A stretch of 64,000 nucleotides of DNA from Bilabrum cf. latius. Lineage: Eukaryota. Of the stretch, positions 7,718-36,368 are shown one piece after another. The stretch covers positions 682,001 to 746,000 of the forward strand of contig OZ237759.1 of the NCBI GenBank assembly GCA_965178125.1, read 5' to 3'. Both the position numbers and the translations under genes were made by a program. How positions within the stretch are numbered: the stretch's first letter is position 1; each line of letters starts with the position of its first letter. A model generated the notes under the pieces. It was not told the origin of the DNA and searched no databases. It saw only the letters and a list, made by a program, of their open reading frames with translations.

Positions 7718-8087
7718 TATTAGCAAATAGTAGTATCGGTGTGATCAATTGCATCAATTGGATTGATGGTATCCCCAGGATCTAGTTGCGCTAGGTTGCG
7801 CGGCGCCAATGCCAGTTCCGCCGGCGCTGACGATCTCGGCAAATGGATTCGTTTCGTGGCAGGCAGCATACCACACAAACAAGGTGCCGAAACGCGATAA
7901 GCTGGATCCCTGCGCATATAAATACATTATATTTGTAACCACACGGGTTATTAGCTCAACAAGACAGTTAGTGGCGGGGTTGTAGCTCGCTCCTTTTGTG
8001 ATGACGCTCGCCATCACGATAGAGTGACTTGCGCACAATCTGCACATTTGGGCTCCCAGCCGTAGCTGACGGATGCTTTAAGCAGAA

Positions 8088-11000
8088 ATGGCTCATAGAA
8101 GCGGTTCCGGCAGTGTAGCTAAGCGTATTGTGCGTACGATGTCAGTGGCTGAAAAGCAGCCAACTGTTGCAAGCGTTGCCTCGGTATATGATCCCTACTA
8201 TGTATAGGTATGCCATTCACTCGTCACAATATTATTTGCTTTAACGCTTGTATAGTTCGTTGCCGTGCCTCGGTGGCGTGCAGCGGGTGATGCTCCCGTT
8301 GTCGTTGTTCAAAGGCAGACTGACCCAGTCGCCGTGGTGTGCATAGCACTATCGATACTTCTAGGTTCTGCAATCAGTTCCGTTGCAATGGATTACTGGT
8401 ACGTGCACAAACGCGGCTAGTCTGTACATTTGTCGGCCGACAGCGATGCGAGGCATGCGAATGGTGAGGTCGCAGAGGATGCCGTTTAGCCCAACTCCCA
8501 TGGTCGCAGTGTTTCACCGATTCCGAGCCCATACTTTGCTTTTCACTGTATCACAGGTATTCGCTGTGTGTGGTGCTGCGCACATGGCAACCGTGCGTAG
8601 GACGGATCGAGTGAGCAAGCAGCCGGGCACTCTGAGCCGGCTTTGGCCCACAGCGGCAACCGCGGAGCAGACCCAGTGGAATCCAGGTTTATTTGGTGCG
8701 CGCTAGCATGCGTGCGCATCATGCGGGGCGCGCTTGTTGGGGGAAGCACAGGCGGTAGCTGCCTGCTCGGTTGCTGCTTGTGCGCGCGTCGGTCCAGCAC
8801 CGGCCATCAGCCTCACCAAGCCACCGGCAATAGCCAGTAGCCCCGGCCCGACATGCATCACGCAGTGCAGCACCACGCTCCATTGAACTCACGCTGGGTA
8901 GATTTGCTTGAGGCTCAGCTGGAGGAAGCGGCAGGCATCTGCAGCCAAGCAAGTGCTTAGGCTGCCGCTGACCGAGCACTTCCGGAATTGGTCGCACCCA
9001 TGCCCCTCACGCGCGGCGGGCATTCATAGATTAGCAGCCAGCAAGACGACCCAACCAATGCACGAGGTCTCGCATCAATTTCTCGCAGTAGCGAAAACGG
9101 CGACGGAAATGCTTCAGATGCAGATCGAATGCCTTCGGCGGCTGCCCCCCACACCGAGTACGCTGGTGGTGGGAGCAGCTCCACTGGCAGCGAGGATCGA
9201 TTCGTGACATCCGGGCGCCCGTCCTCCACGCAGCATATGCATGGAAACGATCCATCCCTAGCGATGTCACAGGCACCGGCAGCCAGGCAAATGGTCACGG
9301 AAGCGTCTGCACAGGCAGCCCGATTCATCGCACAGGTCGCCATTCCGCTATGGGCTCTGCTGCTGCTCACCATTTTCTCGATGGTGGAAGACTTCTGGTC
9401 CGGCGCGGGAAGGGGCGCCAGGAAAGTGTTGGCGATGTGGGTGTTTTGGCCCGTTCTCGCCCCTCTGGACTACGACAGGGCAGCGGTGCCGTGGGTCACC
9501 ATGCAGCTGGCGTACCTCGCGTGGACTTGTGGGCTTTATGCCGCCATCGGGGAGACCAAATCGGACTGGCCGTTCGGACGGCAGGACATTGATTTGCTCC
9601 CAGAAAGTACACGCTACAGTTAGACGAGCCCGCTCGGAATTAACGGAGTGGGGCAGTCCCTCTCCTTGCTGGTGGTGCTGTCGGCCTCGGCTCTCCTCGT
9701 GCCGGTTGCAACCTACATCGATCGGGCGGTGCTGCGGTGGCGGCTGGAGCGATCCAAGCAGCAGCTGCGGAACTTGGCGCGCGGCGCCCAGCACCAGCGC
9801 GACGCCATCACGCAGGCTGTCCGTGACTCTGTGCCTCCTTTCGCCCAGGAGTGCATGGAGGTTGGAGTGGCCGCGTTTGAGAGCACCCCGGTGGTGATTG
9901 CCGCCAACATCGTGCTGCCAACCACGGTTGCCCGGCTTCGTGGAGAGACAGTCGCACCGCGCTAGAACAACGCACTCACTCAAATGCAGCGCATTGCAGA
10001 CCCCGGGGTACCTCTCGTTGGCTCGTACTAGAGCGCTCATGCAGAATTCCCGAGTAGCGAGGATGCGGGTGTGACGAGTGGTCATGGTGGTCGGACGAAT
10101 GAAGAAGAGAACGCAACGAGCGGATCACAGGCGGGCCGGGTACCCCGCCCCGGCATCGTCACAGGGCGAATAGGAGCGAGCGGGCGCGGTGCCGGGGCTG
10201 CTGCTGGAAGTGAGAGCGACGCCCAGCCGCCCGGTGACTCGATAGGCAGTTTCCAGTCAGGCTCCATCTTGCAGATCGGATCAAGAACGGAGAGGGCGAC
10301 GAGCCGGGCGACCTCAGCGTCTGGCACCTCATAGAACGGGGAGGGGCCGGTGAGGGAAGGCATCCTGACGGGGGGGCGGTCCTCCACGGTCGCGATCGCA
10401 TTCGCTGGGGGTGCCCCCACCACTATCCCTAGCAGCAATCACCGCGGCGGTGGCTCCGGCGGCAAAGCGAGCGCCTCTCGAGCTGCGCACATCGGTTCCG
10501 CTGGTCCGAGTCGTATGGCGGTACCGTCTGTGGCGGTTCCACCTGTTGTTCCCCCGGTGATCTTGGCTGCAGCGCGCCTCGCAAGCGTGCTGGACGGAGA
10601 CGTCGGAAACGTGACCGGTCACCGCGTGCACGCTGCCATCTTGCAGCACGTGTTCAGAGACAGGCAAAGATCCAGCATTCCGCAGACAGGGTTAGCTTCG
10701 TAGCAAGAAGGGGCAGGCAGTGGCCGAATCCGTGTTAGGTAGCCGCAAGACCTCCTCATGGCAGACGCGCCAAGAGGGGGCATATTCGGTTTAGGGACTG
10801 ACGAGGCGACCGGCAGCGGTACCAATGAGCGGGCAGCACCGTATGCCGAGTCGAGCACCCTGCCTAGCGAGCTGGACATGGTGGGGCTGGTGCACCGCGT
10901 TTGCGCCAACCGCAAGAAGGCGGCTGCATCGGTGAGGCAGCACAGGAGGAAGCTCGGCAGGATGGCAGTAGATCAAGACCTGGCATCTTCGTCCCTTGGC

Positions 11001-14000
11001 GTGCTGACCCGCAATGCAATGCAGCACCTGGACTGGCTTGCGGGGTTTCCGTGGGGCATGGCCGCGGGCGCTGCCAACATCGACAAGGTCGCGCAGGGCG
11101 CGGCCAGCGACCTCATTGGAAGTTCCGCAAAAGTGCGCGGCGCCGCCCGCCGCCCGCGCTAGCGAGAAGGTGCGCGCAAGCCAGAGCTATCTAACGGTGA
11201 CAGCGACGCCGTGTGGCTCGCAACGGTCGGGATGCTGACGCCCGCCAGGCAGAGCGAGTCCTCGGATCACGCGGTCAGGAAGGATCTGGAGGTGGTGAGC
11301 GTGCTACGCGCTGTGCTCGCTGCCTGCAACGCGGCGCAGCAAATCGTAGACCAGAGGGAAGAGGAGAGCCGGCGAGAGCGAGATCGTGACATGCAGCACC
11401 AATCCAGGCAAGGGACGGATGGGACTACCAGAGGCAGAGAAGGGCAACAGCACGACGATCCACCGGTGGAGCACGGCTGCCTGTGTATGGGAATTTTTGT
11501 TCCCTCGTCCTCGAGTCCGCCCATGACCATAGGATTGCTGGGGACGCGACAGCAGCCGCAGGAGTGGCGTGCGGTAGGCGGGGGCTAGGAGGAGTCACAT
11601 GCCCTCGCGATCGCAGCAAGGTCACAGCTGGCGGATGCGATCGAGACGTACAGCAAGCCGACGGGCGCCCTATCAGCAGCAGCGCAGCGTGCTGCCAGCG
11701 GTCCCGCTAGACAAGCATCCTAGGGATCGTCTTTAGCTCTCGGTGGAAATAATACGAACTTTCCGTCTGCTGGGAAAGCTGGTGCCGGACCCGCCGCTGC
11801 CAACGGGGCCAACAACAGCGTGACCGCGGATCAATCCGACCGTGCTGATGAGAGTGACGGGCAGGTGGATACGGCGGAAGCAGCATTGAGAGCCGCGGCC
11901 CCGGGTAACAACACCAAGAGAAACCCACGAGATGGATCCGCAAGGAGAAGCGTCCGCATGTAGGAGCGGTCTTCGGAACTGCCAGCCAGGGGGGAAGGCG
12001 GAGCCACGGTGGTACGTGGGTTACCAGATAGTGCACGCAACAAAAACCAAGTGACCGAGGCCAGGAAGAAGCGCCTGCTGGTGCCATCGGGGGTGCTGTG
12101 CATGAACCGCAAGACCCAGCACAGAATCCTTGCGATCCTAAAGGTCCTGGAGCACGGCATCCAGGCGGCCACACAGTGGTACCTTGCCGTGGTGAGCGGG
12201 GCCGACGCGGAGCGGCGACAGCGTGCGCAATGGAACTAGGGCGGGCTGTTCCGCGTGGACGCAATGGGAAGCCGTTCCTTCAACCATGGCAGTGCCACTG
12301 GCTTGGAGTCAGACGATGGGTACGGGCCAAGCGGCAATACAGACATGTTCTCTGACCCTAGAATGCCCAGCGGCGACACGTCCGCACCTGGCCAGTATAC
12401 AGGGAGCAACAGCGCTGGCAATGACAACGAGAATCCGTTCGCATCGTCCTCGCAGGGTGACACTGCACCAGACCCGTACGCCGAGTACAGGCGCGACCTT
12501 GGCCTCCTGCAGACGGCCAAGGGGGCCGTAAAGCATGTCATCTACTGGTTTGAGAGTGGATCCACGCGGAAGAAGGATCTGCTGAGGCCCCCTTCACTGG
12601 CTCAGGGCTCCTTGCGGGGAGGGAGGGACCACTTCAGCTCCAGGAGGGGTCACAGGGGCGGCACAAAAGAGAGGGCAAGGCAATTATTGTCAGACAAGAT
12701 GTTCTTCCAGGTGCCCGTGGATCGGCCTGACGCGCCCTCGCAGTACTACCATCACTGGGACAGTGGCCTGGTCCTGCCAGAGGCACTGCAGCACGTGCTG
12801 CACGCGCTCGTGAGACCAAGCCAAGCTAGGGTACTGGTCAACGGCGGAAAGGAACCTTCCCTCGCCCCCGTAGTGGGGGACGAACCCCAGCGGAACATGG
12901 ACTCGCCGCCGCCTCATGCAAACGCATCAGGTGCCCACCCTTCACGTGCAAACTCGCCCCGGCAGCTCAACCAAGACTGGGTGGAGCACATGCTCCAGGG
13001 TCAAATGTCTCCCAGGGGCACCGACGCAGCGGCTCGCAGTAGCCGTTCGGCCCAGCACTCCTCAACGCGCCCGATCCAAGCAGGCAAGGCAAGCGCTTTG
13101 CATCGCAGCACTACCATTGGAAATCGGCAGCATGGAATTCACTAGGCCACAATGGATGCAGATATTGACCCGCGAGTAGCTAAAAGCCCCGAGACCCTCG
13201 TGCGCCTCGGTGCCATCACGTCCATCCTGCTGCCGGGGCTAGAGACGGCCTATGCTCAGCTTGACGACGCAAGAGGTGGGATCGCTCGCGATAGTCTCAA
13301 AGGACTTTCCGAAGGTGCTTCCAGCAAGCCATGGTACACCAAGCATGGCAGCTCGCGTGCTGCTCGTGTCTCGGCGCTTCCGGAGCAGGGACTCATCCTC
13401 CACTCGGGCCTTGTCATGGCGCTTCTCGGCGTGGGCACGCTGATCCAGGCCGCGTTCAATTCGTATGTCGCGGTAGCAACTGAAGCTGCGGCCGACGGGG
13501 TGTCGCTGAATAGCGCCTTTGATCCGGCCTAGGTGCTTGCCGCTTTCCCGTTGATTGTCTGTGCTCTGGCCATGGTTTGGGTCGGACTTGCCACCCACTG
13601 CAAGGGGTAGATTGTGGCGACCGGCACTGCCGCGTGGAGCTACGGCACTTTGCTTACTGCCTTCGTTGTCTATACCTTCTGCTTCAGGTTTGAGGCATTT
13701 GCGGAGCTTTGTGCCGCGCGCCGATCTGTACCAGACAGGGGTGCCATCGTGGTGGCGACCCTGCTTCTTGGTACACTGATCATTCGATCGATGAACGCTT
13801 CGTTTTGGAGCATAGTGTTTGCGGTGCTGCTGACCAACGCGGCGTCGGCTGGGCTCGCAACAACCATTCGGAGTGCCTTGGGTGGCGACGTTGGCAGGAC
13901 GGATGAAGAGGCAAAGGAGGCATGCACGGCAGTATGGGGCGATGGCGATGGGGACGTGGCATCGGGTGGCCTGTTCGCGCGAATTCTTGACTCGCTTACG

Positions 14001-17000
14001 CCTGTCATGTTTCTGCTGTAGTACTTGCTCGTGCAGTATAGATCCAGCAGTTTCGTGCTGGTTGAGCTGCGGGCCCTGTCAGGCACATCCAGGGAGATAC
14101 AGGCTTTGCATGCCAAGGCATACCGGCGAATGCGACGGGCCGCCGCCCTTCTCATGCCGATGGCTGCCCTCCTTCGAGTCACTGGTTGGAAGGGTCGGCT
14201 GGACCGGCTTGCCGTCGGTGCGGGGATCCGTCGCGCAAGCCACCAGCTCCTACGAGGCAGCACCAAGGACACCAATGAGCTGAGAGACGCCATCGGCATA
14301 GCCAGGGAGCTGGGTGGCCATGACTCGGGCGCCTCCTCCTCGGGATCGAGATTCGATTCCGAGTCCAGATCAGGGCCACCTCGAGCGATGATGCGGATGG
14401 CCTCAGCCAGCGACTCCACCGCGGGGCATTACGCGGACCTCTCTAGCTTCCGTCTGAACGACCCGGTAGTCCTAGGCAGGTTGGTTGTCGTGTCGATTCA
14501 CCTAAGTGGTCTGAGCAGGGTATCCTCCCTTGTTGGTCCCCTCGCCTCTTTGGCCATCCAGAGGCGGATCGGCGCGGCGGCTGACGCAGTGTGCCAGCGG
14601 TACCGATGCCTGCGGCTGACTTCCTCCAGCAACGGCCTTCAGCTGGGATGGGTTGTGGCTGATTTTGTGGAGGGGATCGGCATGCATGGGCTTGGAGGTC
14701 CACGTGGCGATCATGATGACGCGGACCACGACTCGTCTCTCGGCTTTCGTCCAAACGCATCCTCATAGCGCGATGTAGAAGTGAATTTTGATCGACGCAA
14801 TCCTGTCTCTAGTGCGACTGTCGCAGTCCAGGCTGGGCACCATCGCTCTCGGCATGCTGTGCGGGCACTGGATCCCGAGCACGACATTGCCGCCGCGCTT
14901 GCCCTAAAGCACGCTATTGCAGGTGCTGCTGATCTGCTGTCTCGAGCCAACGGCCTCATGGTGCGCCTGCAGACGGGCATCCTTCCCAGGGTGGGACTCG
15001 CAATGGGGCCCCTCAGTGTGACGATCGTAGGAGAAAAGCCAATGACACTGCAGTATGCTGACAGTGCCTTGGAACGGGAAGACAGGCCGCTTGCGACAAG
15101 CAATGCGCTGGCGCAGCACCGTAATTTGGTGGATTCGGTAGATATAGTTGCCAGCTCACCGTTGCATCCCGTTGCTATTCTTCCAGGCAACGGTATCATA
15201 CGCATGTCCCGCAACTGCCACGAGTTTCTGCAAAGTAGGTCCTCGTCCTCGTCAGATCAACCGGACGTTGATCCGCGCTAGTACGGTGGTACCGGGTCAA
15301 ATGAAGCAAGGAGCGGTGCCCATTTACCGAGTTCGTACAGCAGCGATGCTGTGCTGCCTGCCGTGCCAGAGCATGCTCCACCGAGATCCCAGTTGTACCA
15401 CATTGTGGGAGTGTACAGCGCGTCGTCTAGGATGGAGCAGCACCTGCCGTCCAGCAGCGATTCCGTGGATAAAAAAATGATATCCCGGGCGGAGAGCAGG
15501 TTCAGCAGCACAAACAGCATGGGATCTACGCCGCAGCTGCTGACCGGCAACACTGGAGGCGGCATATCAGACGGGGCTGCGCCACGTGCTATTCCAAGTA
15601 GAAAACGGGTGATGGTAGCGACAGGCTCGCACCAATCTCGAGGGTCCAGCAGAGGAAGGGGTGCGGCGGCACCACGCAGTGGCGGCAGTCCCTAGTCACG
15701 TGGATCTAGGCGGCAGCAGCGTTTCTTGGCGCAGGAGTTTCAGTCCGGCGGTGCCTCCACAGGCCAGATGACCAGCATTGGGTCGGCTCGTGTGATGTCG
15801 TCGATGGGAACCGGTGCAATTGAGGCGGCTACTGGAGCTCATATAACTCGCGCATCCTCGCGGCAGCTTGTGCCAAATAGCGCGCAACGGTATCAGACCG
15901 GCCCGGACATCGGCACCATGCAGTTGCTGAGACCTCCACCGGCCCGGTGCTCCTCTATGGCGCAGTATAAGCTGCTCCGGGTCCTTGGCTCAGGCGGATT
16001 TGCAAGGGTTTATGTGGCTGAGTCGCTATTAAATGGCAAAACCGTCGCCGTAAAGGTCACTACAAAGCGAAAAGGGGACGTCTCGAGGAGGAAAAAGCAG
16101 GACACGAGTGGCGGAGGTGTGGCAAATGACCTGGGGATCGATGACTTGGTGGATGGCGCCGCGCAATTGGGTTCCGGAACCGACGTGCCCACCGGCGTTG
16201 GGACTCTCCACACGAGCGTGTGCCGCGATGAAATCATCGCACTGCAGCGCTGCAAGCTTGCCGGCGTCCCGGGCGTATGCGATCTTCATGGGGTTACTGT
16301 GGATCGCAGCAGCGTGGGACTGATCATGGAGCACATCCCTGGTGTGTCGCTGCGTGACGTGGCTCGTACTAATGACAAGCGGCACAGGATGTCAGAGGAG
16401 TCCGTGAGGGTGGTCGCGAGGCAGCTCGTCAGCACCCTGACGAAGATGCACGCCGCAGGGGTGCTGCACAGGGATATCAAACCGACGAACTGCATGGTGC
16501 AAAGCAGAACTGGCGCTGCGCGATTGATTGATTTCGGGCTTGCCACGGACGCAGGCAAAGACCCGAGTGTGCAACATGGTCGTGGTAAGCTTGATAGCGA
16601 CACGACGGCTCGAAATAAACGAACTGGTGGTGACACGCAGCCTCCAGCGACTGCTTCTGCAGAGTTGGCTGCTTCTGCTGCTGCCGGTGAACCTGATGAA
16701 GTTGCGGCCGGCAGATCTAGGAAGGGTCGCAGCGGGCCGGCCACAGCCAAGGCGAAACAGGCCTCTAACGCCAGAACCTTCAGTGGACAGTCCAATGGTG
16801 CCGGGGCTGGTGCTGGCGCCTGCAAGAGTTAGCAGCAACAACAGCAGCAGCTCTAGCAGCAGCGCGATATCTCGCGTGGTAAGCCTGATACAAATCAGGA
16901 AGACAGTGCAGTCGTGTGGCGCAGAGAGGTGCTCGATACCCATGACGAATTGCTTCTCACGCTGCCTGCCCTAGTACCGAGGGTTTCAAGAGCGTGGGGC

Positions 17001-20000
17001 CACGAACAGCGCGCGCCCGGGGCAGAGACTCGCTCCAAGGAACGACGCATCCAACAAAATGCAGCCGCCAGTCGTGGCGGTGCGGATGCAATGACAGCAG
17101 TAGGCGTGCCTACACCAATGATGAGCGTGGTTGGATCCCGCAAGCATTCAAGTGGTAGCAAAGGGCACTCGGGTTTCATGGCCGCAAACAGCTGGGAGGA
17201 GGTGAATGCCGGGCCCATACAAGCTTCAGCTGACGCGTCTCACAGGGATATGCCAGTCGCAGGCCAACGTGAGCGGTCAGACAATGCCAGTGGAGCAGCC
17301 AGTGGGGCGGCAAGCATGGGCGCGTCGGCTACTTCTTCCTGCGCATCGGCCGGCCAGTCCAGCAAGGTGATGATTGCGTAGGACAAGAGTGGCTCTGTGG
17401 ACCACTCGAGACAGTCGTAGCTGTCGCCCACTGAAAGCGACAGTCAGCGGTCCGCTTGGGCCATGGAGCTGCGCGCTGCGGTCAATCGCGCCGCGACCGC
17501 TGCGGCTGGGGCAGACGACGGCAGCTCCTATTCAGATCGAGCTCGCTTTAGCAGCATTGACGCACCACTGGCCGATGCATCGCGGTTTGGAGATGCGACC
17601 GGTGCAGATGTGGCCGTAGACGAGCCAGAGCTGCAAGTGCATCGTATTGCGGTGCTTATCGTGGCTTGCGAGTCCGAGCGTGCTGCGGGCAGGCGACCTC
17701 AGAAAGCTGCCGGCTTTGGTGCGGCAAAAAAGGTCGTGAAGCCCATGGAAGAGTTGAAACCTGCTGTGCAAAACGCGAAGAACGCCCAGCTGGGCGGCCG
17801 GATCACGCCACTACAGCAGATTTGCAGGGAGACTGCCAGCGGTGCTGCTGATACTCAGATTTAGCCGGGCGGCGTGTAGATGACTGGTACAGCTGCATCG
17901 GGAAAGCAGGCACAGGAGCATGGTAGCAAACCAAGCACAGCAAAAGAGTCAAGAGAGGTACCAAGTGGCATCGACAAGAGCAGCACTGCCGCGAAAGGCT
18001 AGAACGCACCAAGTGCACCAGTTGGGCGTCGAATTTTACCAGCAATCGTCGAGCAGTCGCGAGACAGCGACGTAGCGACCAATGCGACAGAGCCAACTGA
18101 TATTCGTGGCGGCCAGGTGCCTGCAGCAATCAACGCTGCGAAGCCTAAAGATCCAACGCCCGCCGAAGAAAACCAGGCTGTCGAATCCGGCCCGTCGGAC
18201 GTCGACTTTGCCCACCTTCTCGCAAAAGGGCTCCGCGAGGCATCAGCAGGTCAGATCTAGCCGACTATCGTACGGAAAGTCAAAACCTTGAAGCAGCTCA
18301 TGCACAGAGACCCTCTTCTGTTCGACGCCGTGCTTTGCGCTGGGACATTCTTCGAGGATGAGAAAGAGAAGCTGTCATTGGCTTGGGAGCAGGCGTCATC
18401 GGAAGAAGGCAGCAGTCCAGATGACCAAGGAGCCGGAAGTGCTGCGAAACAGCACGAGACCGCGTCGCTGCGCACGGTCAAGGGAGCCGACGGGGCCGCA
18501 GCCGGAGCCAGCAGCCAGACCCAGCAACCCGTGTCAGTTGGGAGCATGGAACAGCCCGCTGATGCATCTGGTCGCCCCTCCGGTGCCGCCAGCATCAGCA
18601 AGAGCACCCGTCACACCTATGCCATCCAGGGCGAGGATAGCAAGATCGAGTCTGAGTCAGAAGAGGCAAATGAGGGCGATTCGTCTGCCGCTGCTGGCGC
18701 CTCGTCTGGTGCTGGCTACAGCACTCACGGGAATAGTACGGACCAGTACCCGAAGAATTCCATCGAATCATCTGTGGTGCGTCTGTCACGCAGGCCAGCA
18801 AAGCAGCTGGCGCGGCGAGCAGCTGCCGTCGAGAGCCGGTATGTCCTGCGATCCACCCGTGGATTCGGAACTACGGGTGCGGCCGGTCAGATGCACCGGC
18901 AGCGGTCTTTCTCCATCAGCACGTCGATCAGCCAGGGGACCTTTGCCAATTCGGAGTCGCAATTCACTCAGCCCCTCAGCCGCGCCGTCAGGGTGTACGC
19001 GCTGCAACCAGGCCCCAGCTCCAGCTCCAGCCACATGATCTCAAGCGCAAGGAGCAAGTCGAGCTCGATCCGAAATATTGGGGCGCACGACGCGCCGCCT
19101 GCTGACCTGCCGCCGCACAGGCTCGCAGCAATCGCTGGTTCACGGGCCGCGCAACCTGTTCCCTGGGACCTGCTTGTTCCGGTTGTGTTCTCGTCCTCCC
19201 GCGTGCGGGGAATGCTGTAGAGGCATGGAAGTGGTGACTTGACCTCAGCCTCACCCTTGACACGAATGGGCAGCAAATCTGACGGACTCCTGTCTACGAA
19301 ACGCGGCTCTGGTCGCTCATCGCCGCTCTTGGGCGGTCGTTACAAAGGCGGAGCTGCTCTCGAGAGTGGCGGCGAAGATGTGGCTGGGGTAATTTCTGCG
19401 AGTCTGGGCTCCGCTCGCGCCGGAGCTGCTGAGACAGACAAAGCACAAGAGACAGACGCGAATTCCAGAGTCAAATCGCCCGAGTCGGACTGGTACGCTC
19501 GTCACACTGAGGGGATCCGCAGGCTTGCTGCACGCTTGCTCGAAGAAGGCTCGGCGAGAGCTGAGCTCTACCAGGAGCAGGCTGCCATCGCGAGCGGATG
19601 CAAGGCACCAAAGCTCGATCTGCGCGAGATCCCACGGCGCGGTAGCACGGTCAAGAGAGCATCTCGCCGGGCCATGCAGCAGCAAGGGGCAAGGCAGCGA
19701 GCTCGCTCGGCAGCAGTGCGCCCAACGGGCAAGCCGTGGATGCGGATCGAATCGTCATCGAGCGCTGCCTCCAAGGCGACTGCAGGCGCCGTGTCTCTCT
19801 CGTTGGAAACCGCTGGACACGGCGAAGAACACGCGAATGCAGGTGGCATGACCATGGGTGAGGCAAGGAATCACCGGTCCTATGCCAGTGGGGAGGCCGG
19901 TGGCAGTGGCAGCAGGCCGGAGGTCGGCTCCAGGGAGCACCACGATGCGCGCGCCCAGCGAAACCAGGGGTCCCGCTTGCGCAATACGGGGACTAGACTC

Positions 20001-22775
20001 CAGAGCATGCACGCTCGCCCTACAGGCGGAGTGCAGGTGCTTCCGGGTCTAAGTGAGCACTCTATTCATTCCGTGCAGAGGGGAAGATGCCTGAGTGAGG
20101 ACAAAGGCGTCGATGATTCGGTCGTTGCCCTGGCTGCCGCGGAGGGCGACGAGGAGGAGGCTGAAGCTTCAAACCGACAGATCCCAGCCGTATATTACGC
20201 GCCAAGGAATGGAATGCAAGCACGCTCCAGCACGGGGTCGAGCCAGCAGCGTGCTGCCGCTGCATTGCATGGTGGTGGCCACGGCTCGCTGGCGCCACAA
20301 GGCAGTGGGCTGGGCCGGTAGGAGTCGCAGTCCTCGGTGCAATCTCGCTCGTCACACCAGTCTCGCAACCAGGTGGTGCCAGCGGATGCCGCGCACTAGC
20401 CCATGATGGCTGGCCGGCTCGCTCGGCGCGCATAGACGGTCGCTGGAACGAGGGTTAGAGCCGAACGAGCTGGTGATCAGACGGACCCCGATCAATAGCC
20501 CGGGAGGGAAGACTCTCGAACTCGAATGAAGGAGAGGAAGTTGGAAGGCCTGCTTAAGCGCGGCGCAGATCCAGCCGTTGACGTGCCGTCCAAGCAGTAT
20601 GGGTTGGGCCTGGATTTGGGGATGCGGCCAGGCATTGAAGGGTCTACTACCCGGGGCAGTATGCTTGACGGGGCTACTCTGCAGCCGGGCCAGGCGCCCG
20701 GAAGCTTCTATGGGTCAACCGACTCTATGTTCGGGTTTGGGGGCGTTGTTGATAGAAATCATGGGGTCGGTATCGGGGCGCGCGCGCCCGAAGAGCCTCC
20801 TCTTGCTATGGTGTACCGCGAGAACCAGCCGTTCGTTGCAGGCGTCGTGGGAACTCCCATGTTCATGGCCCCAGAGCTATTCGAGCACCAGGGGCAGAGG
20901 GCCAGCGACTACTGGTCGTTGGGAGTGACGCTGTTCTGGCTGCTGGCTGGCAACCTGCCGTTCCTAGGGGCGAGCAGGGAGATTACGAAGAAGTCAGCCA
21001 GGCAAGGCCACGTGAGCTGGCGGCTGCTCCCGTCTGACCTAAGCCCTGAGTGCATCGACTTCCTCCGGGGACTGCTGGAGCCGCGTGCCAAGCACAGGTA
21101 TGATGCCGCCGTGCTTGCGGTGCATCCGTGGCTCATGCCTCAATCTCAGGCGGTCAAAGAACGACTCCGGACTAGAATGGGCTCGTCTAGATCTAGCAAG
21201 CTCGACCTATTGCCTACAGAGAGGCGGGGCCTGCTGGGAACCTAGGCCGGTACATCAGCCGATGCTGCGGGCGCTCAGCACAGCTCCCATTGGGCCCAAT
21301 AGAAGAGTCTTGCGGATGACGGCCACCCTGACGAGCTTCCATCCATCGATGCAATCATCGAGAGATGGGAGATCGATGATCCCTACGAGGACCCGGCAGG
21401 CCGCGGTGACCTCACCGGAACGGGTTGGGCCCATGGGCCAGAGAACACAAGTTCTACCACTGAGCAACACGTGGGCCTAATTAAGGAAGCGTCTGGGGCA
21501 AGCCGCACTGGTACAGCTGCGCCTGGAGGGGCAGCACCAGCAGTTCCTGTAGCTGGATCTGACGGCTCCGACTCGCTCGGTGTTGTTGCTAGGCGGCGGC
21601 AGCACACCGCTAGCATGCTGCGGCCCGCGCGCGTAGCACGAGTTTCCCCACTGGCTAAACCTGGCAGGCACAGGATCCCGTGGGACACGCCGGCCTCAAA
21701 CGCGCCTGGCCACCAGTGGATTGGTGGGCAGGCACCCCAGGCTCTGCCCCTGCCCAAGCGCCGCGGCAGTAGCAGAGATAGGGGCAGGGACAGATATACC
21801 GCCGAAGACCGAGCTTCTCGCACCAGGCAGTTGCAATCGCGTGCGGAGGCGCAGGCTATCGTGCACGTGTATGGGGCAAGGATCTAGTGCTTTCCGTCTG
21901 CGGTCGTATTGCGGTCCACCGGCGGGCAGGCCGCCATTGCCAAGAAATTCAGCGCGTATGCCGCTCACAAGGCGGCATTGCGAGACCTGCGAGAGATAGG
22001 CATGCCCATGAGCACCGCTGAGATCGTGCTGCTGCGAAAGAACAGGGAGGTGGCAAAAGCGGCGCAGGCCGCAGCGGCGGGTCACGAAGCGTCATCGATG
22101 TCGAGCGATCAGGGCGGGCTGATCGGGATCCACAGCATCCATCGGGACTCTTCCACGGGCCCTGACGCAGCAGATGGTGGGATAGATCGTGCCAGCGCCG
22201 CACAGCCCGCGCGTACCGGGAGAAGAGACCAGGCATCGCTCCGGCGGGCCATCCCAAGCCACAGCACGCCGTCAGAGCCGTCTGGCGGCTCACATGGGCC
22301 TGCTAGAAAGAACAAGGGTGCATCGGGGAACAGGAGCAGCAGCAGCAGGAGCTCAAGCTCCTCGAGCCACCGGCACCGGGCTCGCGCACCTGGAATCAAC
22401 GCGAGGAACAGACCCGGAATCGATATTCCCACGCGGGGGCGCGGCGAGGTGCCTCCTGTCCAAGCATCGACACAGCCGGCCACGGAAACGGAAACGGAAG
22501 CGGGTGCGTTTGCCGGCTAGCAACCTGGCGTGGCCAGATAGATTGAGAGTGCAGCTGCGCCAGGTGACGACGATGGCGGGTTACGGGCTGCGAGTGAGTC
22601 CAGCGGTTCCACCCTGCGCGTCCCAGCTCCCTTTGGGCTGGGCGGCGGAGGGCCCCAAGGTGGGGACAATGATTCCCCGGGGAACTGGGGGTCGGGGAGG
22701 GCAGATGACGACAACATGGACAGCTCCGACGGAATGGTCGATTCTCGCAATGCAGGCACGCCCATTCCGCGGTGA
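8088..22775 (+). CDS. Giant (~4,900 aa) multi-pass membrane protein with degenerate nucleotide-cyclase-like region(s) and a C-terminal Ser/Thr kinase domain split by a long insert
   Basis: More than 20 track ORFs from 8643 to 22520 lie in one frame. I translated the gaps and found only TAG (about 40), never TAA or TGA, until TGA 22773-22775; an in-frame TAA at 8079 precedes the ATG. Kinase motifs: LGSGGFARVY, VAVK, HRDIKPTN, DFG (16530), GTPMFMAPE (20850), DYWSLGV, HPWL. Possible frame-preserving introns near 8184/8208-8255 and 8464-8556. Confidence 0.85.
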
Positions 22776-22948
22776 GGCTTGAAGGTCAAGGGATCGGACG
22801 TACTGGGGCGTGTCCAGGAGGAATGGCACAGTGGCAGTGCCAGTGCTAATCCATGCAGGTGCATCGATTGATTTGAAGATTTGTAGAACAAACAGACTTT
22901 GTCCAATTCATCTTTTTTTTTGCCGAGCCACAAGCATGCCACACCTGG

Positions 22949-22996
22949 TCCGAACCGAACCGATCCGATCCGATCCGATCCGATCCGATCCGATCC
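22949..22996. repeat. Pentanucleotide microsatellite (CCGAA)2(CCGAT)n between convergent 3' ends
   Basis: Directly visible: ccgaaccgaaccgatccgatccgatccgatccgatccgatccgatcc. Confidence 0.9.
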
Positions 22997-23075
22997 CCGG
23001 TGTTGTTCAAGATGCGAAGCGGCTGCTAGGCAGTGCCAACCCACAGGCATCCCACATACCACTCGTCACACCCGC

Positions 23076-24256
23076 TCACTTGCCCAGCGCCACGGCCCTC
23101 TCCTCCAGCAGCTCCTTCTCGGACACCTTGAGCCTTTCCTGCACGGGGGCTGGGCTCACGTCCATGTCCGGCACGATGGTCCACTTGCCGCCCTCCTCGC
23201 ACACCACGGGAAACGAGTAGAAGATACCCTCGGCGATGCCGTAGGGGTTGCCCTCGCTCGCCACCGCCATGCTGACGGCCTTGCCCCCGCTCCCGCACAT
23301 CCAATCCCTGACGTGGTCGCAGATCGCCGCGGCGGCCGACGCGGCAGAGGACGCGCCCCTGGCCTCGATCACCGCCTTACCGCGCTTCTGGACCGTCTCC
23401 ACGAGCTCGCCCGCCATCCACTCGTCACACCCCTCGCCGAGCTTGGTGCGGGCAGATTCCCACGAGACGGCGCCGCCCTCTGGTGCCTTGGTGGCGACGG
23501 TCATGAAGCGAGCATCGGGGAACTGCGTGGCGGAGTGGTTTCCCCACACGATCGCGCCCTGGACGTCCCATGGCTTGCAGGCGGCGCGCTTGGCGACTTG
23601 ACCGATGAGCCTGTTGTGGTCGAGACGGGTGAGCGCGGTGAAGTTCTCGCGCGGGATGCTTGGCGCGTTCTCGGCGGCAAGCAAGCAGTTGGTGTTCGCG
23701 GGATTCCCGACAACGAGGATCTTGCAGTCCTTGGAGGCGTGCTTCTCGAGTGCCTCGCCCTGTCCCTTGAAAATCCCGGCATTCTTCTCCAGGAGATCCT
23801 TGCGCTCCATGCCCTTGCCGCGGGGCATGGCACCCACCAGGAGAGCGATATCAACTCCATCAAATGCTTCGGCGTAGTCAGTAGTGGCAACGACCCCAGC
23901 GACGACGGGGCTGGCGATGTCTTCGAGTTCCATCGCCACGGCATCAAGGCGGGACTTTGCAGGCGGGATATCGAGCAGATGAAGAACCACCTTCTGGTCT
24001 TTGCCGAGCATTTCGCCGCGAGCAATCATGAAAATCAGACTGCGCGGTCGAGTTAGCATGAGCAGGTCGTCTTTGGAGCAGAATTGATGGAGATGCACAG
24101 GTGCAACTCATCGTCGAAACCGCATCAGCTGCACATCGATTCAAGTTAGCGAGCTCACCTGTAAGCGATCTGACCCGCAGCTCCAGTCACAAGAATTCTC
24201 TTGGCATCTCCTGAAGAACTCAAACTAGATCCAGCTGAACCTGCTACCGCGGCCAT
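23076..24256 (-). CDS. MDH1: Cytosolic-type NAD-dependent malate dehydrogenase, ~353 aa; exons 24256-24159 and 24039-23076
   Basis: [76 protein letters not shown]. The 119-nt GTGAG...CTAAC...GCAG intron falls in the Ser codon. TGA stop. Confidence 0.96.
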
Positions 24257-24491: not shown

Positions 24492-27400
24492 ATGACGACG
24501 GTACAGATCCACGTTGCGGCTCTCGTTGCGCTATCTTTGCTATGTTTCGAAGTCCAAGTCAGTGGGGCCTCGTGAGAAGAATAATTAATAGTTATTGTCC
24601 ACCGATCCTGATTATGACCACTTATGGCGGGTTTTATTGAATCGTACACGGAGACTTGATAGTTGCCGTTCACCATGCATTGCATGTGTTGTCCGGTTGA
24701 ACCTCCGATTCGCAGGTTAGGAGGGTCTTGGTTTGGGTCAGGTACACATAATAAAATCCGGGACGAAGGGGGCGATAGCGCCGACCCTCCCCGCTCACCT
24801 GCATCAACCAAAGCGAGCGCATCGACTGGGACCGAATACTCTCTCGCGTTCGTGCTGGAGCGATCCCGCCCAGTGGCCGCCGCGGGTGCGCGAACCTTGT
24901 ACCGCTCACAGGCAATCGCAAGGCAGGAACACCTCGACCGGCGCGAGAAACTCGCCGCAAGAGAGCGAGCAAGGCAGCAGGACATGGACATGAGGAGGAA
25001 GACAGCCCCGCCCCCGTCAGGCGCTGCCCTGGATCCCAATTCCTGGCTCCCGGAGTCCGTTCCACAGGGACTCGGAATCGATGCATTAGGAAACGATCCG
25101 TCCGGAGGCGGCGCGTCTAGGTCCGATGCTGCCGCCCAGCAGCAGCAGCATCAGCAGCCGCAGCCGCTGCTGGACGAGGACGGACGGCCGCTGCCCTCGC
25201 TGCCCCCCGTGCCCAATCCACCGGTGGACGCACCACCCCTCCGGGAGGACCCAGCTGGCGGCGCCGCACAAGATGTTCCGCAATCGGGGTCTGCACGGCT
25301 CCCGCCCGGTTCCGTTGTTCCACAGCACCACGGGCCCTTCGCAGAGGAGGCCGCAGCCATCGACCGGATCGGCGGGGACGCCGGCGCCGCGCGCGCCTGG
25401 CCGCTGTTGCGGAACCTTCGCAGCGCCATGAAGCAGGGTGAGCTAAGCGCGGGCGCGGCCACGGGCAGGGTGCAGCTGAGAGAAGGTTCCTCGCCGGGTT
25501 CGTCCGCAGTCGCCGTGGTCGGTCAGGCCCCCACACCGCCCAGGGGGGCCCGTGTGGACCCCCGAAAGCAGACGGTGCTGGAGGAGGTGCAGGATCCGCT
25601 GCTAGACTACGAAGTGGTTGCAACCTCTGGCGTATCAGTTCCGGTTTTAGAGGGCAACGTCACGCGTGCGTACAAGCAGGACGCTGCGGCGAAGAAACAG
25701 TGGAACGCGCTGCAAGAGGGCCTCAAGATCGGATCAGAGATCGGATCAGGGGACGGTTGCGGCGCGGACGCGGCTAGCTAGGGCGTGTGGGGCGGGGGGG
25801 CGGTCCCAATGTACGAGAGCAGCAGCAGCAGCATGACTCGCCTCCGTCCCCTAACCAGCGAGGATCACAAGCAGGACGATGACGAGGACGAGGACGAGGA
25901 AGAGGAGAGGCAGGATCTCGAGAGGCTGATGGCGATGGGGGCGGGCTCAGATAAGGATGAATCCACCGTCCCTGCATCCCGGAACTAGGCCTCCAATGCC
26001 GAGTCCGGCTCCTGGTCATCCTCGCAGTCATCGCGAAGCCTCCACAGTGGTCAGGGTCAGGTGTACAACGAGAGGGGGAGTCGATCGACAGCAAGCCGGC
26101 AGTCTGAAGCGCCCGGCGCACGAGCGGCGATTCAGCCGTCGATGTGCAGGGCCGGCCGTGTCGGGCGAAGGTTCGCTGACCTGGCAGCGAAACCGGGCTG
26201 GACGCTTCTGCCCTCGGAGAGGCGCATGGCAGCCGGCACGCTTCCCCGGCACTGGGACCCGGAATCGGATGTCGACGGGGTTCGTTCCCTGCGTGGGGTC
26301 AAGACCGACTCCAGGTTCGAGCGGGCGAGTCCCGAGAGTGTTCTCCGACTGTGGCACGCGGAACGTTCGCGAGCTTACGGGAGCGCCGTGGCATACGAGG
26401 CCGCAGTGAGGGCGGCTGCTGCAGCAGTGGACGCTGCGGGGGGCCAGGTGCCCGGCAGTGTGGTCGCAACTCTGCTGGGAGGTAATAGGGGAGAGGGTGG
26501 ACAAAGTGGCGAGTGCGGCGATGACCGTAGTGACGGGCCGTCCGGAACGACGCCGGTCCCAGGATCGATTCCCACAGGATACGCGTGGTTCGGCAGCTCC
26601 GGGACGACGACGGCGGCCGCCGGCAGCAGCACCTGTCCGGCCGTAGGATCGGATCAAACTGAAGCTAGACCGGATCAGCTATCGGCGGGCCCACCCCCGT
26701 TCTTCCTGCACGGCATGCATCGGCTTGAAACCGGAAAAGCGCCGGTGCTGGTGCTGGGGGCGGGGCAGGGGCACCTCGCGACCAGGGCTGCGGAGAAACT
26801 CAACGGATCTCTTGTTGTCTCGGTCGCATGGCCGGTGCCAGGTGCGGCTAGCTCGGCCTTTGGTGTGACGAGCGAGGGGAGCGCAGCTGCAGGCGAAGCG
26901 GTTCCGCTCGCGGCGCCGGCTCCCGGCCAGAGCGGCGGCTCGCCCTCCTCCAGGCACACAGGCAGTGTGACGAGCGCAGGCCCTGCGGGCGTGACGAGTC
27001 CGGTGCAGCTGCACTCTCGGCTCCGCGCTTCGCTGGGCCTCGAGAACGCGGCGCTGTGCGAGGCGCCGCTGACGGAGCAGCTGCTCCAGACCGTGCTCGC
27101 TTCAATGGGGAGGGACCGGGATGACGTCATCGCGCGCGCCGCGCGGCTGCTGCCTGCGGAACCTACGATGCGCGGCGCCGATGGTGGGTCGTGTGGGTCG
27201 CAGCTGCAGGGAGCGGGCTCCCTGGGACTGGGGTGGGGTTCGAGATCGGATCAGGGGCCGTCCACCCCCGAGGTGGGGGCACCAAGGGATATCCCCCCGG
27301 GGTCCCTGTAGGCACTGGGGCACCGCGCCATCGCTCTGTCGAGGGGCTCCCCCGCCGTGGGGACACCCGCCAGGTGGGGCCTGCTGGTGCTGCAGGACCT

Positions 27401-28798
27401 GGCCTCTTTGCAGGGTGACTTCCTGCCCCGCGAGTTTGAGACCCTGCTTGGCGCCTTCCTGTCGGTCGCGCGGTACACGGCGGTGCCTGCCTCGCTGCCG
27501 GAGGGCCGTCTCTTCTCGTCGTGGGGCAGCACCGAGGAGCTGATCCGATCCTCATGCGGCGCCGCGCGGTTGGTTCCGCAGTTGAGGACCGTGGGTGAGG
27601 GCGAGGGCGCCATGATCGTGGTCGGCGTGCAGACACCGGAGGAGGCAGAAACGGAGCAGGAAGCAACGGCTTGGGCCGAAGTGGTCGCAAACTCAGTCAA
27701 CGCCGCACGCGGGTATGCAGACCACAGCGACGAAGACACCGGTGAATCGCAGGACGATGACGACAATGCGAAGGCTGGCAGCAGCGGAGGTAGCAGCAGC
27801 GGTACGGGCAGCGGTTCGTCCTCGTCCTCGTCTTCCTCCTCCTCCTCGTCCTCCTCCTCCTCCTCCTCTTGGCAATCCCCTTGGTCTGCATCTTCATCTT
27901 CACCGTCCACATCGCCATCTACCGCGAAATCCGGTAGCGACATAGGCAGCAGCAGCAGCGGAAATTCAAGAGGTGAGAGCAAAGGCAAGGGCAAGGGCAA
28001 GGGCAAGGGCAACGAGCAGTCCGACGAGGACTGGAGGAAGGGCAAACTGGCGGCTGCCGCCAAGGACGGGAAGAACCCAACGGCTATATGCGGGGAGCAA
28101 CCCCTACTTGACGTCCTATCTGCGACCAAGGACGCCTGTCTCGTGCTTCTCGAAGCATCTGCTCAGGCGCAGCGCTGGTCGCAGAGAAATGCTCGCCTGC
28201 AGCAGGCCGAGCAGATGCTCCGCGGCGGCAATTTCACAGAGCGCGAGAAGATGCTCGCCTGGGCCAGGCTGCCAGAGGTTCCGCAGCGCGCGGCGCCTAC
28301 ACTGCGGCAGGCGGAAGAGCTGGCGATCGACGCGCTCCGATCGACGGGCTTGATGTCTCGGGGGAGAACGTTCCCTGCGGTTCTTCCCAACGACGCGTGG
28401 TCTTCGCCGCTGTCGCCGGCCCCTAGGGGCATCGCACTGCAGCACCTCGTGGCCATGGGTCTCAGTGGAACCGACCGGCGCCGCGCGTTCCGGAACTTCC
28501 TGTCGGTGGGCGCCCCCGGGGCAGGTTCCGCAAACGTGCCGAGCCGCGGCGCCGCGCTTTCTCCCGAGGGCGGCCTCGTGTTCCCTGAGCCGGTCCCGAC
28601 CGCGCTGCCGTACGGTGTGACGAGTGGTCCCTTGTCCCTGCCCCCGCTCCCGTCTCCCTCGGCGCTGCCATCCCCCTCCCCCTCCCCCTCCAGCAAGCCC
28701 ATCGCTTAGGCGTCGGACTCTGCGCTGATGCCTGGCAGCAGCCTGGGCAGCAGCACGGGCGCGAGTGGCAGCGCCATCCGCGGCGATGTATGGGACGG

Positions 28799-28830
<32 letters not shown>

Positions 28831-31800
28831 CTGGGGGGTCGAGCTCGGCTAGCAGGTGGAACGGCTTGGAGTACGTCGCTGGCGATGACGGCGATGCGGA
28901 ATCAGCCGAGCCAGGGCCTGCGTCCACTCGTCACACGGACGCCGCCCCCTCATCCAGACACGCTGCGCACGCCGCCAAGTCTTCTCCAGCAGGCGGCTCG
29001 ATCTAGCGGGAGGAGGAAGAGGATGATGATGATGATGGGTCCAAGTTCTTTCCGGCGGGATTCGCCGGTGGTAGCGCAGGAGTTGAGGCATCGGCCGCCA
29101 GCACCGGCACTTCAAGCAAGTCCAGCACCGGCACTTCAAGCAAGTCCACAGGCAGCAGCAGCATCATGGGCGCTGGAGGTGTTCCGCAGTCGGCATTGCG
29201 CGGCGCCGCAAATTCTGGAGGCTCCGCAAGCATCTCTCGGGACATTCTGAGAAGGCAGCAGGAGCAGGAGATCAAGGAACTGACGTCACACTTCCCGGGG
29301 TTAACGCCATCGAAATCAGTTCCATCCACCACGGGTGGGTTGCCGCCGCCGTCGCCGCTCATGCCTCCGGTGCCCTCACCTGGCTCCAACGACGCGATCC
29401 CGCCTGCCGATACAACCAAATCGCGCGGCGCCGGTTCCGCAAGCAGCACTACTACTTCGACTTCGACTTCGACAGGGTCTGCGAGCAGCCCAGCCCCGAG
29501 CACACCGGGGAACAGGGACGGTGTGACGACGAGCGCAAGGGAGGCCGCCATCAAGAGCAAGGGCGCCCCCGCCAATCGAGGGGTTCTCAGGGGGGGTGAT
29601 ACGAAGTCCGGCATGAAGGGCTCAACTTAGGCATCCCCATCGGTGACAGAAACCACGGGAGGAGCAGGCGGCGAGCGCAATACACAGGGCGACCCAGCAG
29701 CAGGCCCACCGGCTGCCTCTCAACACTCGTCACACTCCCCGGGCTCCCGCAGGCTCCTCGGCCTGATGCTCCCCGAGGAGAGTGAAGGTCGGCACGCCCT
29801 GCTCGGGGAGGCCTACAGGCGATACCAGAGCCCGCACGCGCTGGCGTTCCCGCAAGACGACGCGCGGGGGGCCGGCGGTGCTGGCAGTAGTGGTGGGGAT
29901 GCAGCGGGCCTGTCGCTGCTCGGTGGACAGGCTGCCTCGGATCACTCGTCACACGTGGACCGGCCGTTGCCAGCCCTCTCTAGCTCACGATTCGGCGGCT
30001 CCGGGGCAGCAAGGCCTTCCTCCGTGTCTTCCTCCGGGGGAAGCAGCACTTCGTCTTCGTTCTCTTCGTCTCCGTGGTCATCTACTGGCGGAAGCGGATT
30101 CAGCAGCAGCACCCCAAGTTCTAGTTCCGGGAAGGCGAGCTCGGCAGGCGAGCGCAGGTAGCTGCTCGACTTGGGGTCGCAACTGGTCGCAAGCTGGCCG
30201 AGGCTTCGCAGGGAACTTTCCCTGGGGAACACCGAACAGGCCAATGACTTCACTGCGATCGTGTACGGAACCGCGGGCGCCGCGCTCGCGACCAGAATCG
30301 CCCGCGCGTTCCCGCTCGCTACAGTGGCATCAACCCACGACGATGCTCGCCTCACCGGCGCCCACACCGACCTGCTGGCCACCCTCGGGCTGCGCAACGT
30401 GGCGGTCTGCCGCTCCACGCTGACGCCCGCTCGCGCGGAGTCACTTTTGGCGGCGCAGGACCCCGTCAGGTACCAGTTTCTCGGGACTGACACCGCCACC
30501 GGCCTGCTCGCCTCCTCGTCGCAGCTGAGCGCATTCGAGGAAGCCCTCGGTTCCGTATTGCGCGGCGCCGCTACCACGTTCCTCGAGGTTCCGCAGCTGG
30601 ACCGGATCATGGCGGGGCTTTCGGCGGTGCGCGGCGCCGAGGAAGCCGCAGCGCTCGCCACGTCAGCGGGTCACCATGCGGAGGTTGCCTTCCTGCCCGT
30701 GTTCGCGCGGACCGCTCTCTCCACCCTCGCTGCGACCACGGAGATCGGATCAGAGATCGGATCACCCACGGTGGGCGTGCGTCTCGGAGCACTGGGTCCC
30801 GACGGGTCGAGCGGGCTGGAGGCCGGGGCTGGGGCGTCTGGCGCCGGGGCCGGGGCCAGGGCCGGGGTCAGCGGAACCGGGGGCGCCGCGCAAGATGCGC
30901 CTCTCAGTGCACTTACGGCCAATGAGGGGGGCATTAGCGGAACCAGCGGCGCCGCGCAGGACGCGTCGTCCTTCGTGTCGTCCCGCCACGCCGCCGCGGC
31001 CGCTGGCGGAGTGGGCACTGGGCACCTCGACCCGCGTGGCGCCGCGCATTTCGCTGCGGAACGCATGCTCCAGGTGCCCCCGTCGTCCGCAGCGGAACTC
31101 AAGGGGTTAGAGTCTCGCTACGGCAGCGAAGGCTCGGTCGGGTTCCTCAAGCGCGTGGTGGCACGGGCGGCCGTGGCGGCTGGCCTGCAAGCGGCCTCCG
31201 TGAAACTGGTCGGTTCCAGCGGAACCTCGATCGGAGGCGCCGCGCGGTCCGTGCTTCTCCGAGTGGACGCAGCCCCGTGGGCAAGGCAGCCGCCGGCCGG
31301 AGAGGCCCCCGCGGCGCCGCCGGCGGTTCCGCAAGTGGGCGAGGAGCACGTCGGTCCCGACGCGGCGCTGCCCAGGGCCGGCCTATCCCTCCATACCCTC
31401 CTGGTCCTAGGCCTGATTCCCGATGCGCGGGCCGAGCTGTTCCGGGCCTACCTCACGCTGCCGCTGCCGGAGATGGCGGCGGCAGGAAGGGCGCTGGGCC
31501 TGAAATCAGACGGGCTGATGCTCGGTCCGTGGCAGGTGCGAGCGCTCGCGGAGAGGCCGGCGCCGCGCATTGGAGCAGCGGAACCGGTCGAGGGTGCTGT
31601 TGAGTCCATGGTTCGCACCACACTGGTCGCAACCATTGGAAAGCGCGGCGCCGCGATCGGCCGCCGGTTCCGCAGCGCAGACCCAGGGACGTACTCTGAC
31701 GCCACCGCGGGCCGCGCACTCGGCGCCATCTTGCCGCAGATGACCCTTGCAGACACGGCGAGCGGGGGCGCTCCCGGCCGCTTCAGCTTTCTTGAACTCA

Positions 31801-36268: not shown

Positions 36269-36368
36269 GCCTTTCTTTGGCTGCACTTCAGCCTAGTAGG
36301 TAGAGGATGGCTTGCTCCGGATCCAGTGCAAGATGCCGAAGAGCATGCGCGCCTCATAGCTTTGTGCC

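Follow-up and report, generated by a model that had tools for sequence, protein, structure and literature searches.

A 64,000-nucleotide (nt) stretch of the Bilabrum cf. latius genome (GenBank assembly GCA_965178125.1, contig OZ237759.1, positions 682,001 to 746,000 of the forward strand), hereafter the window, encodes a Ser/Thr protein kinase whose catalytic domain is split within the activation segment by more than 1,400 residues. The best explanation, to which we assign a probability of about 65%, is one translated gene for a receptor-like membrane pseudo-cyclase kinase with a pseudo-receiver inside its activation segment. The gene runs from the first ATG of its frame, taken as the start codon, to a TGA (8088..22775, counted from the first letter of the window; this gene and all its parts given below are on the + strand) and comprises 4,864 codons after removal of one intron, including 43 TAG read as glutamine (Gln) next to 58 CAA and 160 CAG; the listed pieces of sequencing run X5 start at 7888. 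An earlier note on this DNA had placed a split kinase at 15960..21140. Its kinase motifs were right, but that span takes in only about one third of the gene, and the protein context was missing from it, the kinase being preceded in the same chain by membrane helices and two cyclase-like halves.

The kinase motifs occupy a single frame. Subdomains I–VII (15960..16538, delimited by Pfam and motifs) include the Gly loop GSGGFARV (15987), VAVK (16044), the αC Glu in RDEIIAL (16224), HRDIKPTN (HRDIK at 16467) and DFG (16530), and the domain resumes with GTPMFMAPE at 20850 (VV from 20844), followed by DYWSLGV, PF and HPWL (21123). The 4,320 nt between DFG and GTPMFMAPE equal 1,440 codons, as the earlier note had it, and the VAVK Lys, HRD and DFG that it listed are all in place. 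The insert itself (16539..20849) has 1,437 residues, and the end of the activation segment (YRENQPF) with subdomains VIII–XI extends over 20814..21134 by alignment with a solved kinase. With its catalytic set complete (Gly loop, β3 Lys, αC Glu, HRD..N, DFG, APE and subdomain IX Asp), the Ser/Thr kinase is predicted to be competent. A profile search likewise recovers one kinase in two stretches (Pfam Pkinase, E 3.8e-39), the only other models matched by the protein belonging to the kinase clan. Through the insert the frame contains 13 TAG and neither TAA nor TGA, against 16–34 TGA in each of the other five frames; at the off-frame TAA/TGA rate (123 of 7,196 codons), 1,440 codons would stay open with a probability of ~1.7e-11. 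With TAG as a sense codon the open reading frame (ORF) spans 8082–22775 (4,897 codons, 44 TAG). The standard code leaves the halves in separate ORFs of 378 (15696–16832) and 248 residues (20499–21245), the misreading as two half-kinases that had been foreseen, and it cuts the related family genes into pieces as well. The description of the insert as rich in Ser, Ala and Gly holds for all three residues, but at 15% Ala, 12% Ser and 10.5% Gly it is close to the remaining protein (13.6, 11.1 and 10.1%), so the bias is not peculiar to the insert. Tandem arrays are not the source of its length, there being just four short ones in 8000–23100.

Contigs of four sequencing runs were compared over 7500–23000 (X7 covers 20 of 30 bins; X8, with almost no words of the gene, was left out). 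A 7,213-nt contig of X5 spans 13701–20913 with no differing letter and no gap, covering the C2-like cyclase half, the kinase N-half, the insert and the start of subdomain VIII at a depth of 17.7, against 9.1 on the spliced 5' piece. An in-frame GT..AG intron of 93 nt (8464..8556) is skipped in X5 and X6, with 255 and 20 letters, respectively, on the short side of the joint, and retained in X1, so both X5 and X6 apparently contain spliced RNA. The earlier note had named splicing of the segment, or halves on separate transcripts, as what would overturn it; no joint in the contigs of this region removes the insert, and the X5 contig is continuous through it. The idea that the insert is an intron, or that TAG is a true stop and the halves belong to two genes or to a pseudogene, could draw on the 13 in-frame TAG, on six GTRAG sites within the insert and on the single internal skip in X6 (16690–18486). 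That joint, however, is bounded by AC..GA, is supported by 24 letters and includes unknown letters, and TAG behaves as Gln and is also read through in Prp8 and eRF1, leaving this alternative largely refuted. Some points tell against our own interpretation here: none of the runs is recorded as RNA, X5 is flagged 'probably DNA', and the contigs are insufficient to prove a single transcript. We nevertheless regard one gene in one reading frame under a UAG=Gln code as almost certain.

The codon assignment was assessed in alignments of 23 paralogues, where 96 TAG positions favour Gln (log-likelihood ratio +59) and disfavour both the next residue (−56) and Tyr (−165). As controls, CAA returns Gln at +63 (n=97) and eight further codons return their known residues. 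Six of the eight highly conserved TAG-bearing columns hold Gln. The fetched sequence (574 kb) contains 52 frames of at least 800 codons, which end in TGA (42) or TAA (10), and the window frames of 1,000–4,900 codons arise only with TAG as sense; TAA or TGA as the read-through codon was rejected, since neither gave comparable frames. Prp8 has 3 TAG in 2,663 codons (counted without alignment to references). The eRF1 gene (L119:1870-3423, +, contig C35) has introns, in-frame TAG codons in its N-domain and a TAA end; its stop-recognition motifs read TAVNIKS and YMCDSHF. A cytosolic malate dehydrogenase gene (window 23076-24107, −) that converges on the kinase gene contains no TAG, and conserved genes, with none in malate dehydrogenase and few in Prp8, seem to avoid the codon. 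Judged from sequence, UAG encodes Gln in this genome and UAA and UGA stay stops, a code of the NCBI table 15 type. A candidate tRNA for UAG, with anticodon CUA, is encoded in the nuclear genome at C23:907607-907679 (L121:1500-1574, −). It is the one CUA tRNA among 48 Rfam matches, of which it ranks second, in a search that scored 63 of 780 candidates, so that more CUA copies may exist. Its raw similarity is 50 to the genome's tRNA-Tyr and 43 and 42 to two tRNA-Gln types; the acceptor stem is tRNA-Tyr-like, the D-arm Gln/Glu-like by eye, and the sequence does not settle its amino-acid identity. TAG=Tyr, considered on account of this acceptor stem, was rejected by the codon log-likelihood. A pattern scan for CUA tRNAs was uninformative (33 matches against 74 in a reversed control), and ARAGORN found no tRNA among 30 fetched candidates.

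According to the available part of a published survey, codes in which only UAG is reassigned to Gln, with UAA and UGA kept as stops, occur in Iotanema spirale, Hartmannula sinica, Trochilia petrani and Protocruzia tuzeti, that is, in three ciliates and one fornicate (PMC11687900). Compared with the organisms described there, the present genome is set apart by a GC content of 60%, few introns and a 38-kb mitochondrial contig. The one named neighbour of its Cox1 among 120 listed is an oomycete (78%), and its malate dehydrogenase is 50–59% identical to any named sequence. The Cox1 neighbour hints at a lineage outside those ciliates and the fornicate, although it does not place the organism; no report of a UAG=Gln stramenopile was found in the literature searched, which was partially covered. 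The present case would thus add a UAG=Gln code and a candidate tRNA in an apparent lineage beyond those of PMC11687900. The mitochondrial contig itself (C111, 38,401 bases; L166-L169) is AT-rich, with UGA=Trp and a tRNA bearing a UCA anticodon.

The window gene belongs to a family of at least 24 paralogues in this 48.6-Mb genome. With the kinase C-half as query, 12 paralogues sharing 58–73% identity were recovered, followed by a series of more distant members, and the order of parts is common to at least 24 family genes. Nearly all of these are one continuous frame of 2,600–5,300 residues in which two membrane clusters precede the kinase (two members are split over two frames). In the 23 measured members the gap from DFG to GTP is 372–1,440 residues, the window copy being the longest; it is 372–648 in the 12 close paralogues and 627–1,296 in ten distant members, as against 18–29 residues at four control kinase loci. 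One further member, on C35, carries the insert domain but has an APE motif off the pattern and is for that reason omitted from the tree and the gap table. A kinase phylogeny recovers the 23 members as a clade (support 93) and the window subfamily as sister to the distant member C4d (support 100), which carries a whole receiver-like domain, in a tree limited to 30 kinases of this genome, without PKA, RSK or NDR references. The insert is therefore a family trait, and the length of the window copy comes from loop growth. Structured segments are constant in the window copy (142, 82 and 91 residues), whereas its loops are 1.5- to 4.8-fold longer than the family median: 573 against 255 residues inside the first cyclase half, 994 against 630 between the halves, and 137 against 54, 459 against 96 and 844 against 371 in three parts of the insert; the linker from the C2-like half to the kinase is not expanded (332 against 333). 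C5_1439122 was dropped from this comparison, and some anchors could not be matched in the two C7 rows (n = 6–11). As most loops of the window gene are expanded, the record insert length is part of a gene-wide expansion.

Several family members form inverted pairs or tandem arrays (C34 606267-625805, C5 1439122-1468149, C7 1046507-1063673 and C8 1069565-1100053). Some paralogue pairs have near-identical kinase halves and inserts of unequal length (376 and 601 residues), a sequence pattern that suggests gene conversion of the conserved blocks. Adjoining a tandem array of three full members, C8:1100628-1108000 (L028) contains two frames with HRD and DFG and without APE, possibly truncated or intron-split copies. 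Outside this genome, a profile of the insert domain had 30 matches among 1.84 billion proteins; 29 of them were aligned to fetched loci, with which they share 24–99% identity. The matches are fragmentary, 29 of the 30 being under 450 residues; one (P0019) has a kinase N-half followed by the insert domain and is 31% identical to L049. Three close relatives in one metagenome (L181–L183, 64–68%; the three read of 42 metagenomic loci) show TAG read-through, and one of them (L182) has a 610-residue gap with the same insert motifs. A word-based homologue search with a paralogue C-half against proteins of 1,438–4,578 residues found none at 1e-10. By these sequence matches the family is also present in related organisms.

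Structure prediction of the two lobes was possible for a close paralogue on C7 with a 372-residue gap, the window copy being too long to fold. In its AlphaFold model the kinase halves have a pLDDT (the per-residue confidence score) mostly of 65–88 and together match phosphorylase kinase (Z 25.1, 3.0 Å, 256 of 277 residues), consistent with the single kinase fold that the earlier note implied. The insert of this model contains a βαβαβ unit (pLDDT 60–72, with one dip), and three insert motif blocks keep their order in all 13 close members and the metagenomic relatives. The insert, described in the earlier note as Ser/Ala/Gly-rich, is more than low-complexity sequence and holds conserved motifs of a receiver-like fold. 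In the ten distant members these motifs extend to five strands, forming a predicted (β/α)5 domain. A model of the distant insert (first row, L051) has a core pLDDT of 88–96 and, compared with 48,161 chains, is most similar to a receiver domain (Z 11.0, 2.8 Å, 119 of 126 residues); receiver, response regulator or CheY-like appears in 33 of the top 50 titles. The window insert is marked by the motif W-x-HDELxLxLP (16914..16967), conserved in the close subfamily, a putative β1 (17640..17669; an aligned column block, with the strand assigned from paralogue models) and β2–α2–β3 (18261..18344), the last matching between close and distant subfamily profiles at E 1.4e-4 (29 columns) and E 6.2e-4 (31 columns). 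Its link to the receiver-like domain follows from position, from the sister relation to C4d and from this β2–α2–β3 block. A number of results weigh against the receiver assignment or against the link. The receiver fold is modelled on a distant paralogue and not on the window copy; 128 chains have Z ≥ 8, among them a flavodoxin-like one that is not a receiver (Z 9.9); Foldseek with the insert-domain model gave no match at E ≤ 0.001; the insert core scored 12.0 against the genome's own receivers (shuffled mean 12.4) and its sequence is unmatched in Pfam (including PF00072) and PDB; domain profiles on the window insert were not above shuffles (4.0 and 0.1 bits); and no β4-like motif, a feature of 7 of 14 relatives, was detected in the window insert. 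Taken with the structural matches, a receiver origin of the insert core is likely, and the window copy would be a degenerate half-receiver that detectably keeps β1–β3 only.

Canonical receivers carry an acceptor Asp after β3, Thr/Ser after β4 and Lys after β5. In the distant members an acid ending β1 and an Asp ending β3 are found in at least nine of ten rows, and ordinary receivers have at least 51 matches in the genome, so that two-component parts are in use; both would fit an inserted domain that works as a phospho-acceptor in intact members, a His-Asp relay switching the Ser/Thr kinase. We think this distinctly improbable, since neither the β4 Thr/Ser nor the β5 Lys is visible at those positions in the distant-member alignment and the window β3 ends in AGT, without the Asp. 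A somewhat unlikely alternative is a real gene in which the insert is a tolerated spacer, a decayed receiver giving the kinase no input. Loop expansion across the gene and not in the insert alone, an insert composition like that of the remaining protein, and the detection of just β1–β3 all agree with such a spacer, as do three kinases outside the family that have gaps of 683–1,053 residues and no receiver-like domain; the conserved order of the three motif blocks and the βαβαβ unit in the C7 model speak against it. Compared with ordinary receivers (REC/CheY-like), whose (β/α)5 fold the distant paralogue insert shares, the family domain is peculiar in lying inside a kinase activation segment and in lacking a PF00072 sequence match. 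Long loop insertions and loss of the acceptor Asp are known from fungal receivers, as the available text of one study describes (PMC8510515). We found no precedent for a receiver domain inside a kinase domain in the literature searched, with partial coverage. Large inserts are noted in the accessible portion of the Dictyostelium kinome paper (PMC1420674), and so are separate receiver proteins, but a kinase containing a receiver is not.

The earlier note likened the insert to those of Greatwall and Rim15, and the insertion site is indeed the same. Published work describes a split between subdomains VII and VIII of ~500 residues in fly, and a split at the same site by several hundred residues in IRE, Cek1 and Rim15 (PMC2171981). 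Relative to Greatwall, the window protein has a much longer insert, with a folded receiver-like domain in its family, as well as predicted membrane helices and cyclase-like halves, and lacks the AGC tail motif. Rim15 also has a receiver, often without the Asp in Ascomycete pseudo-receivers, but from what the available text gives it is C-terminal (PMC8510515), whereas in the present family the receiver-like domain is inside the activation segment. The window kinase halves first match MELK, CIPK, CDPK and DRAK1 among solved structures, Greatwall not being above thresholds among these matches. The tail motif of AGC kinases has the pattern PF-x-P...D-T-x-x-F. It is present in L048 (5327-9706, +; C37), an AGC kinase with a 683-residue low-complexity insert whose best PDB match is human Greatwall (E 2e-24), and in 0 of 24 family members; nor is it found in L046 (4970-9730, +) or L053 (687-4904, −), two AGC-like kinases with gaps of 1,053 and 1,009 residues that group with L048. 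That the window gene is a Greatwall/Rim15 orthologue with a very long non-conserved middle region would agree with the shared site, with an apparent AGC-type tail start seen by eye after HPFF/HPYF in distant members, and with long-gap AGC-like kinases as the family's sister (support 98 in a thinly sampled tree). We consider this highly improbable given the first matches of the window halves, the membrane and cyclase-like parts that are foreign to Greatwall, and the existence of L048; descent of the family from a long-gap AGC-like kinase is plausible. The window kinase thus has a Greatwall-type split yet is not Greatwall, and the genome's Greatwall-like gene is elsewhere.

Preceding the kinase are two membrane regions, each followed by a cyclase-like half. 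The first membrane region (8208..9722, by hydropathy) has two predicted N-terminal helices and a conserved helix cluster (residues ~415–547), this block being 33–48% identical to 11 paralogues; the second helix cluster (13389..14036) is predicted by hydropathy in the window protein and its paralogues. The C2-like half (14463..15236) matches a profile of seven cyclases of the same genome with a probability of 71% (E 3.7e-5, score 38.5), where the maximum of 40 column shuffles was 17.4. Other searches with it were negative or weak (single sequence against PDB, Pfam, own-genome PF00211), and a PDB profile search reached guanylyl cyclases at E 0.4–0.8. The C1-like half (9831..11636), interrupted by low-complexity loops, is non-significant alone (score 16.6, shuffled maximum 19.7). 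Pfam recognizes a cyclase in 0 of 13 second halves; both results count against the cyclase assignment. The C1-like block of the window nevertheless falls on the right motifs, and in distant members the cyclase profile matches both halves (best E 1.2e-7 and 1.3e-4, in C5d), overlapping the matches of the first-half profile, so the C1 assignment in the window rests on distant paralogues. Class III cyclases use two Asp residues to bind metal and an Asn/Arg pair to stabilize the transition state. Both metal-binding Asp and the Asn/Arg pair (N-x-x-x-R) are absent at the aligned positions of both halves, which are thus pseudo-cyclases. The order of membrane clusters and halves is that of membrane class III cyclases, the transmembrane–C1–transmembrane–C2 layout of animals and alveolates, from which the window protein differs in missing catalytic residues, in falling below Pfam detection and in continuing into a kinase with intact motifs. 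Receptor guanylyl cyclases are in the opposite state, with a dead kinase-homology domain and a live cyclase. Genome-wide we found at least 51 receiver-domain and 26 cyclase-domain matches, many of them clustered (C42 and C12), and by these sequence matches the two-component and cyclic-nucleotide inventory is unusually rich.

In the receptor-like pseudo-cyclase kinase that we favour, membrane helices, a C1-like half, further membrane helices, a C2-like half and the Ser/Thr kinase would follow one another in a single chain. The kinase halves would fold as a normal single domain, with the insert projecting from it as a loop between DFG and the P+1 loop in the manner of Greatwall; this insert would have originated when a receiver domain was placed in the activation segment. 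The membrane part may sense an outside cue, and the dead cyclase pair may serve as a conformational relay from it rather than as a producer of cyclic nucleotides. Because the residues directly before GTP include no Ser/Thr and an invariant Glu lies upstream, the intact insert could be a pseudo-receiver that replaces activation-loop phosphorylation as a docking or allosteric module. In the window copy the receiver would be cut to its first half amid expanded, probably disordered Ser/Thr-rich loops (246 Ser/Thr in the insert loops). A regulatory role of the insert is put forward tentatively, at somewhat less than even odds. That these genes form a new receptor-kinase class, combining an activation-segment receiver, two-component or ligand input, a dead-cyclase sensor, an unreported UAG=Gln code and a tRNA of mixed Tyr/Gln character, is unlikely in that full form. 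If correctly interpreted, the family indicates that a whole folded signalling domain, and a length above 1,400 residues, can be accommodated in an activation segment with catalytic motifs intact. The Greatwall/Rim15 precedent, one of disordered spacers, would then extend to the insertion of a domain. It would also offer a natural series, from 372 to 1,440 residues and from whole to half receiver, for the regulation of a kinase by its insert.

Downstream of the kinase domain the protein ends in a C-terminal tail of ~550 residues (21135..22775) without an AGC tail motif. Within it, short blocks that look conserved at 21330-21374 and 21855-22000 (+) consist of RW-x-x-D-D-P-F/Y and a predicted helical stretch, which recur in several close paralogues. 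Elsewhere in the window, a 3,000-codon frame (24660-33662, +) contains three repeated blocks, of which the third weakly matches a methyltransferase (E 7e-4). It is followed by a gene resembling glycoside hydrolase family 27 (GH27) α-galactosidases (35835-37856, +) and by a 2,153-codon multi-pass membrane protein (38644-45105, +) with many low-complexity insertions and a weak ferric-reductase-like match (E 0.0017), possibly a divergent protein of the NADPH oxidase type. Two related small membrane proteins (45106-46905 and 52081-53184, +) have a common ARLRTR motif, and part of a GH35-like gene is found at 56697-59150 (−).

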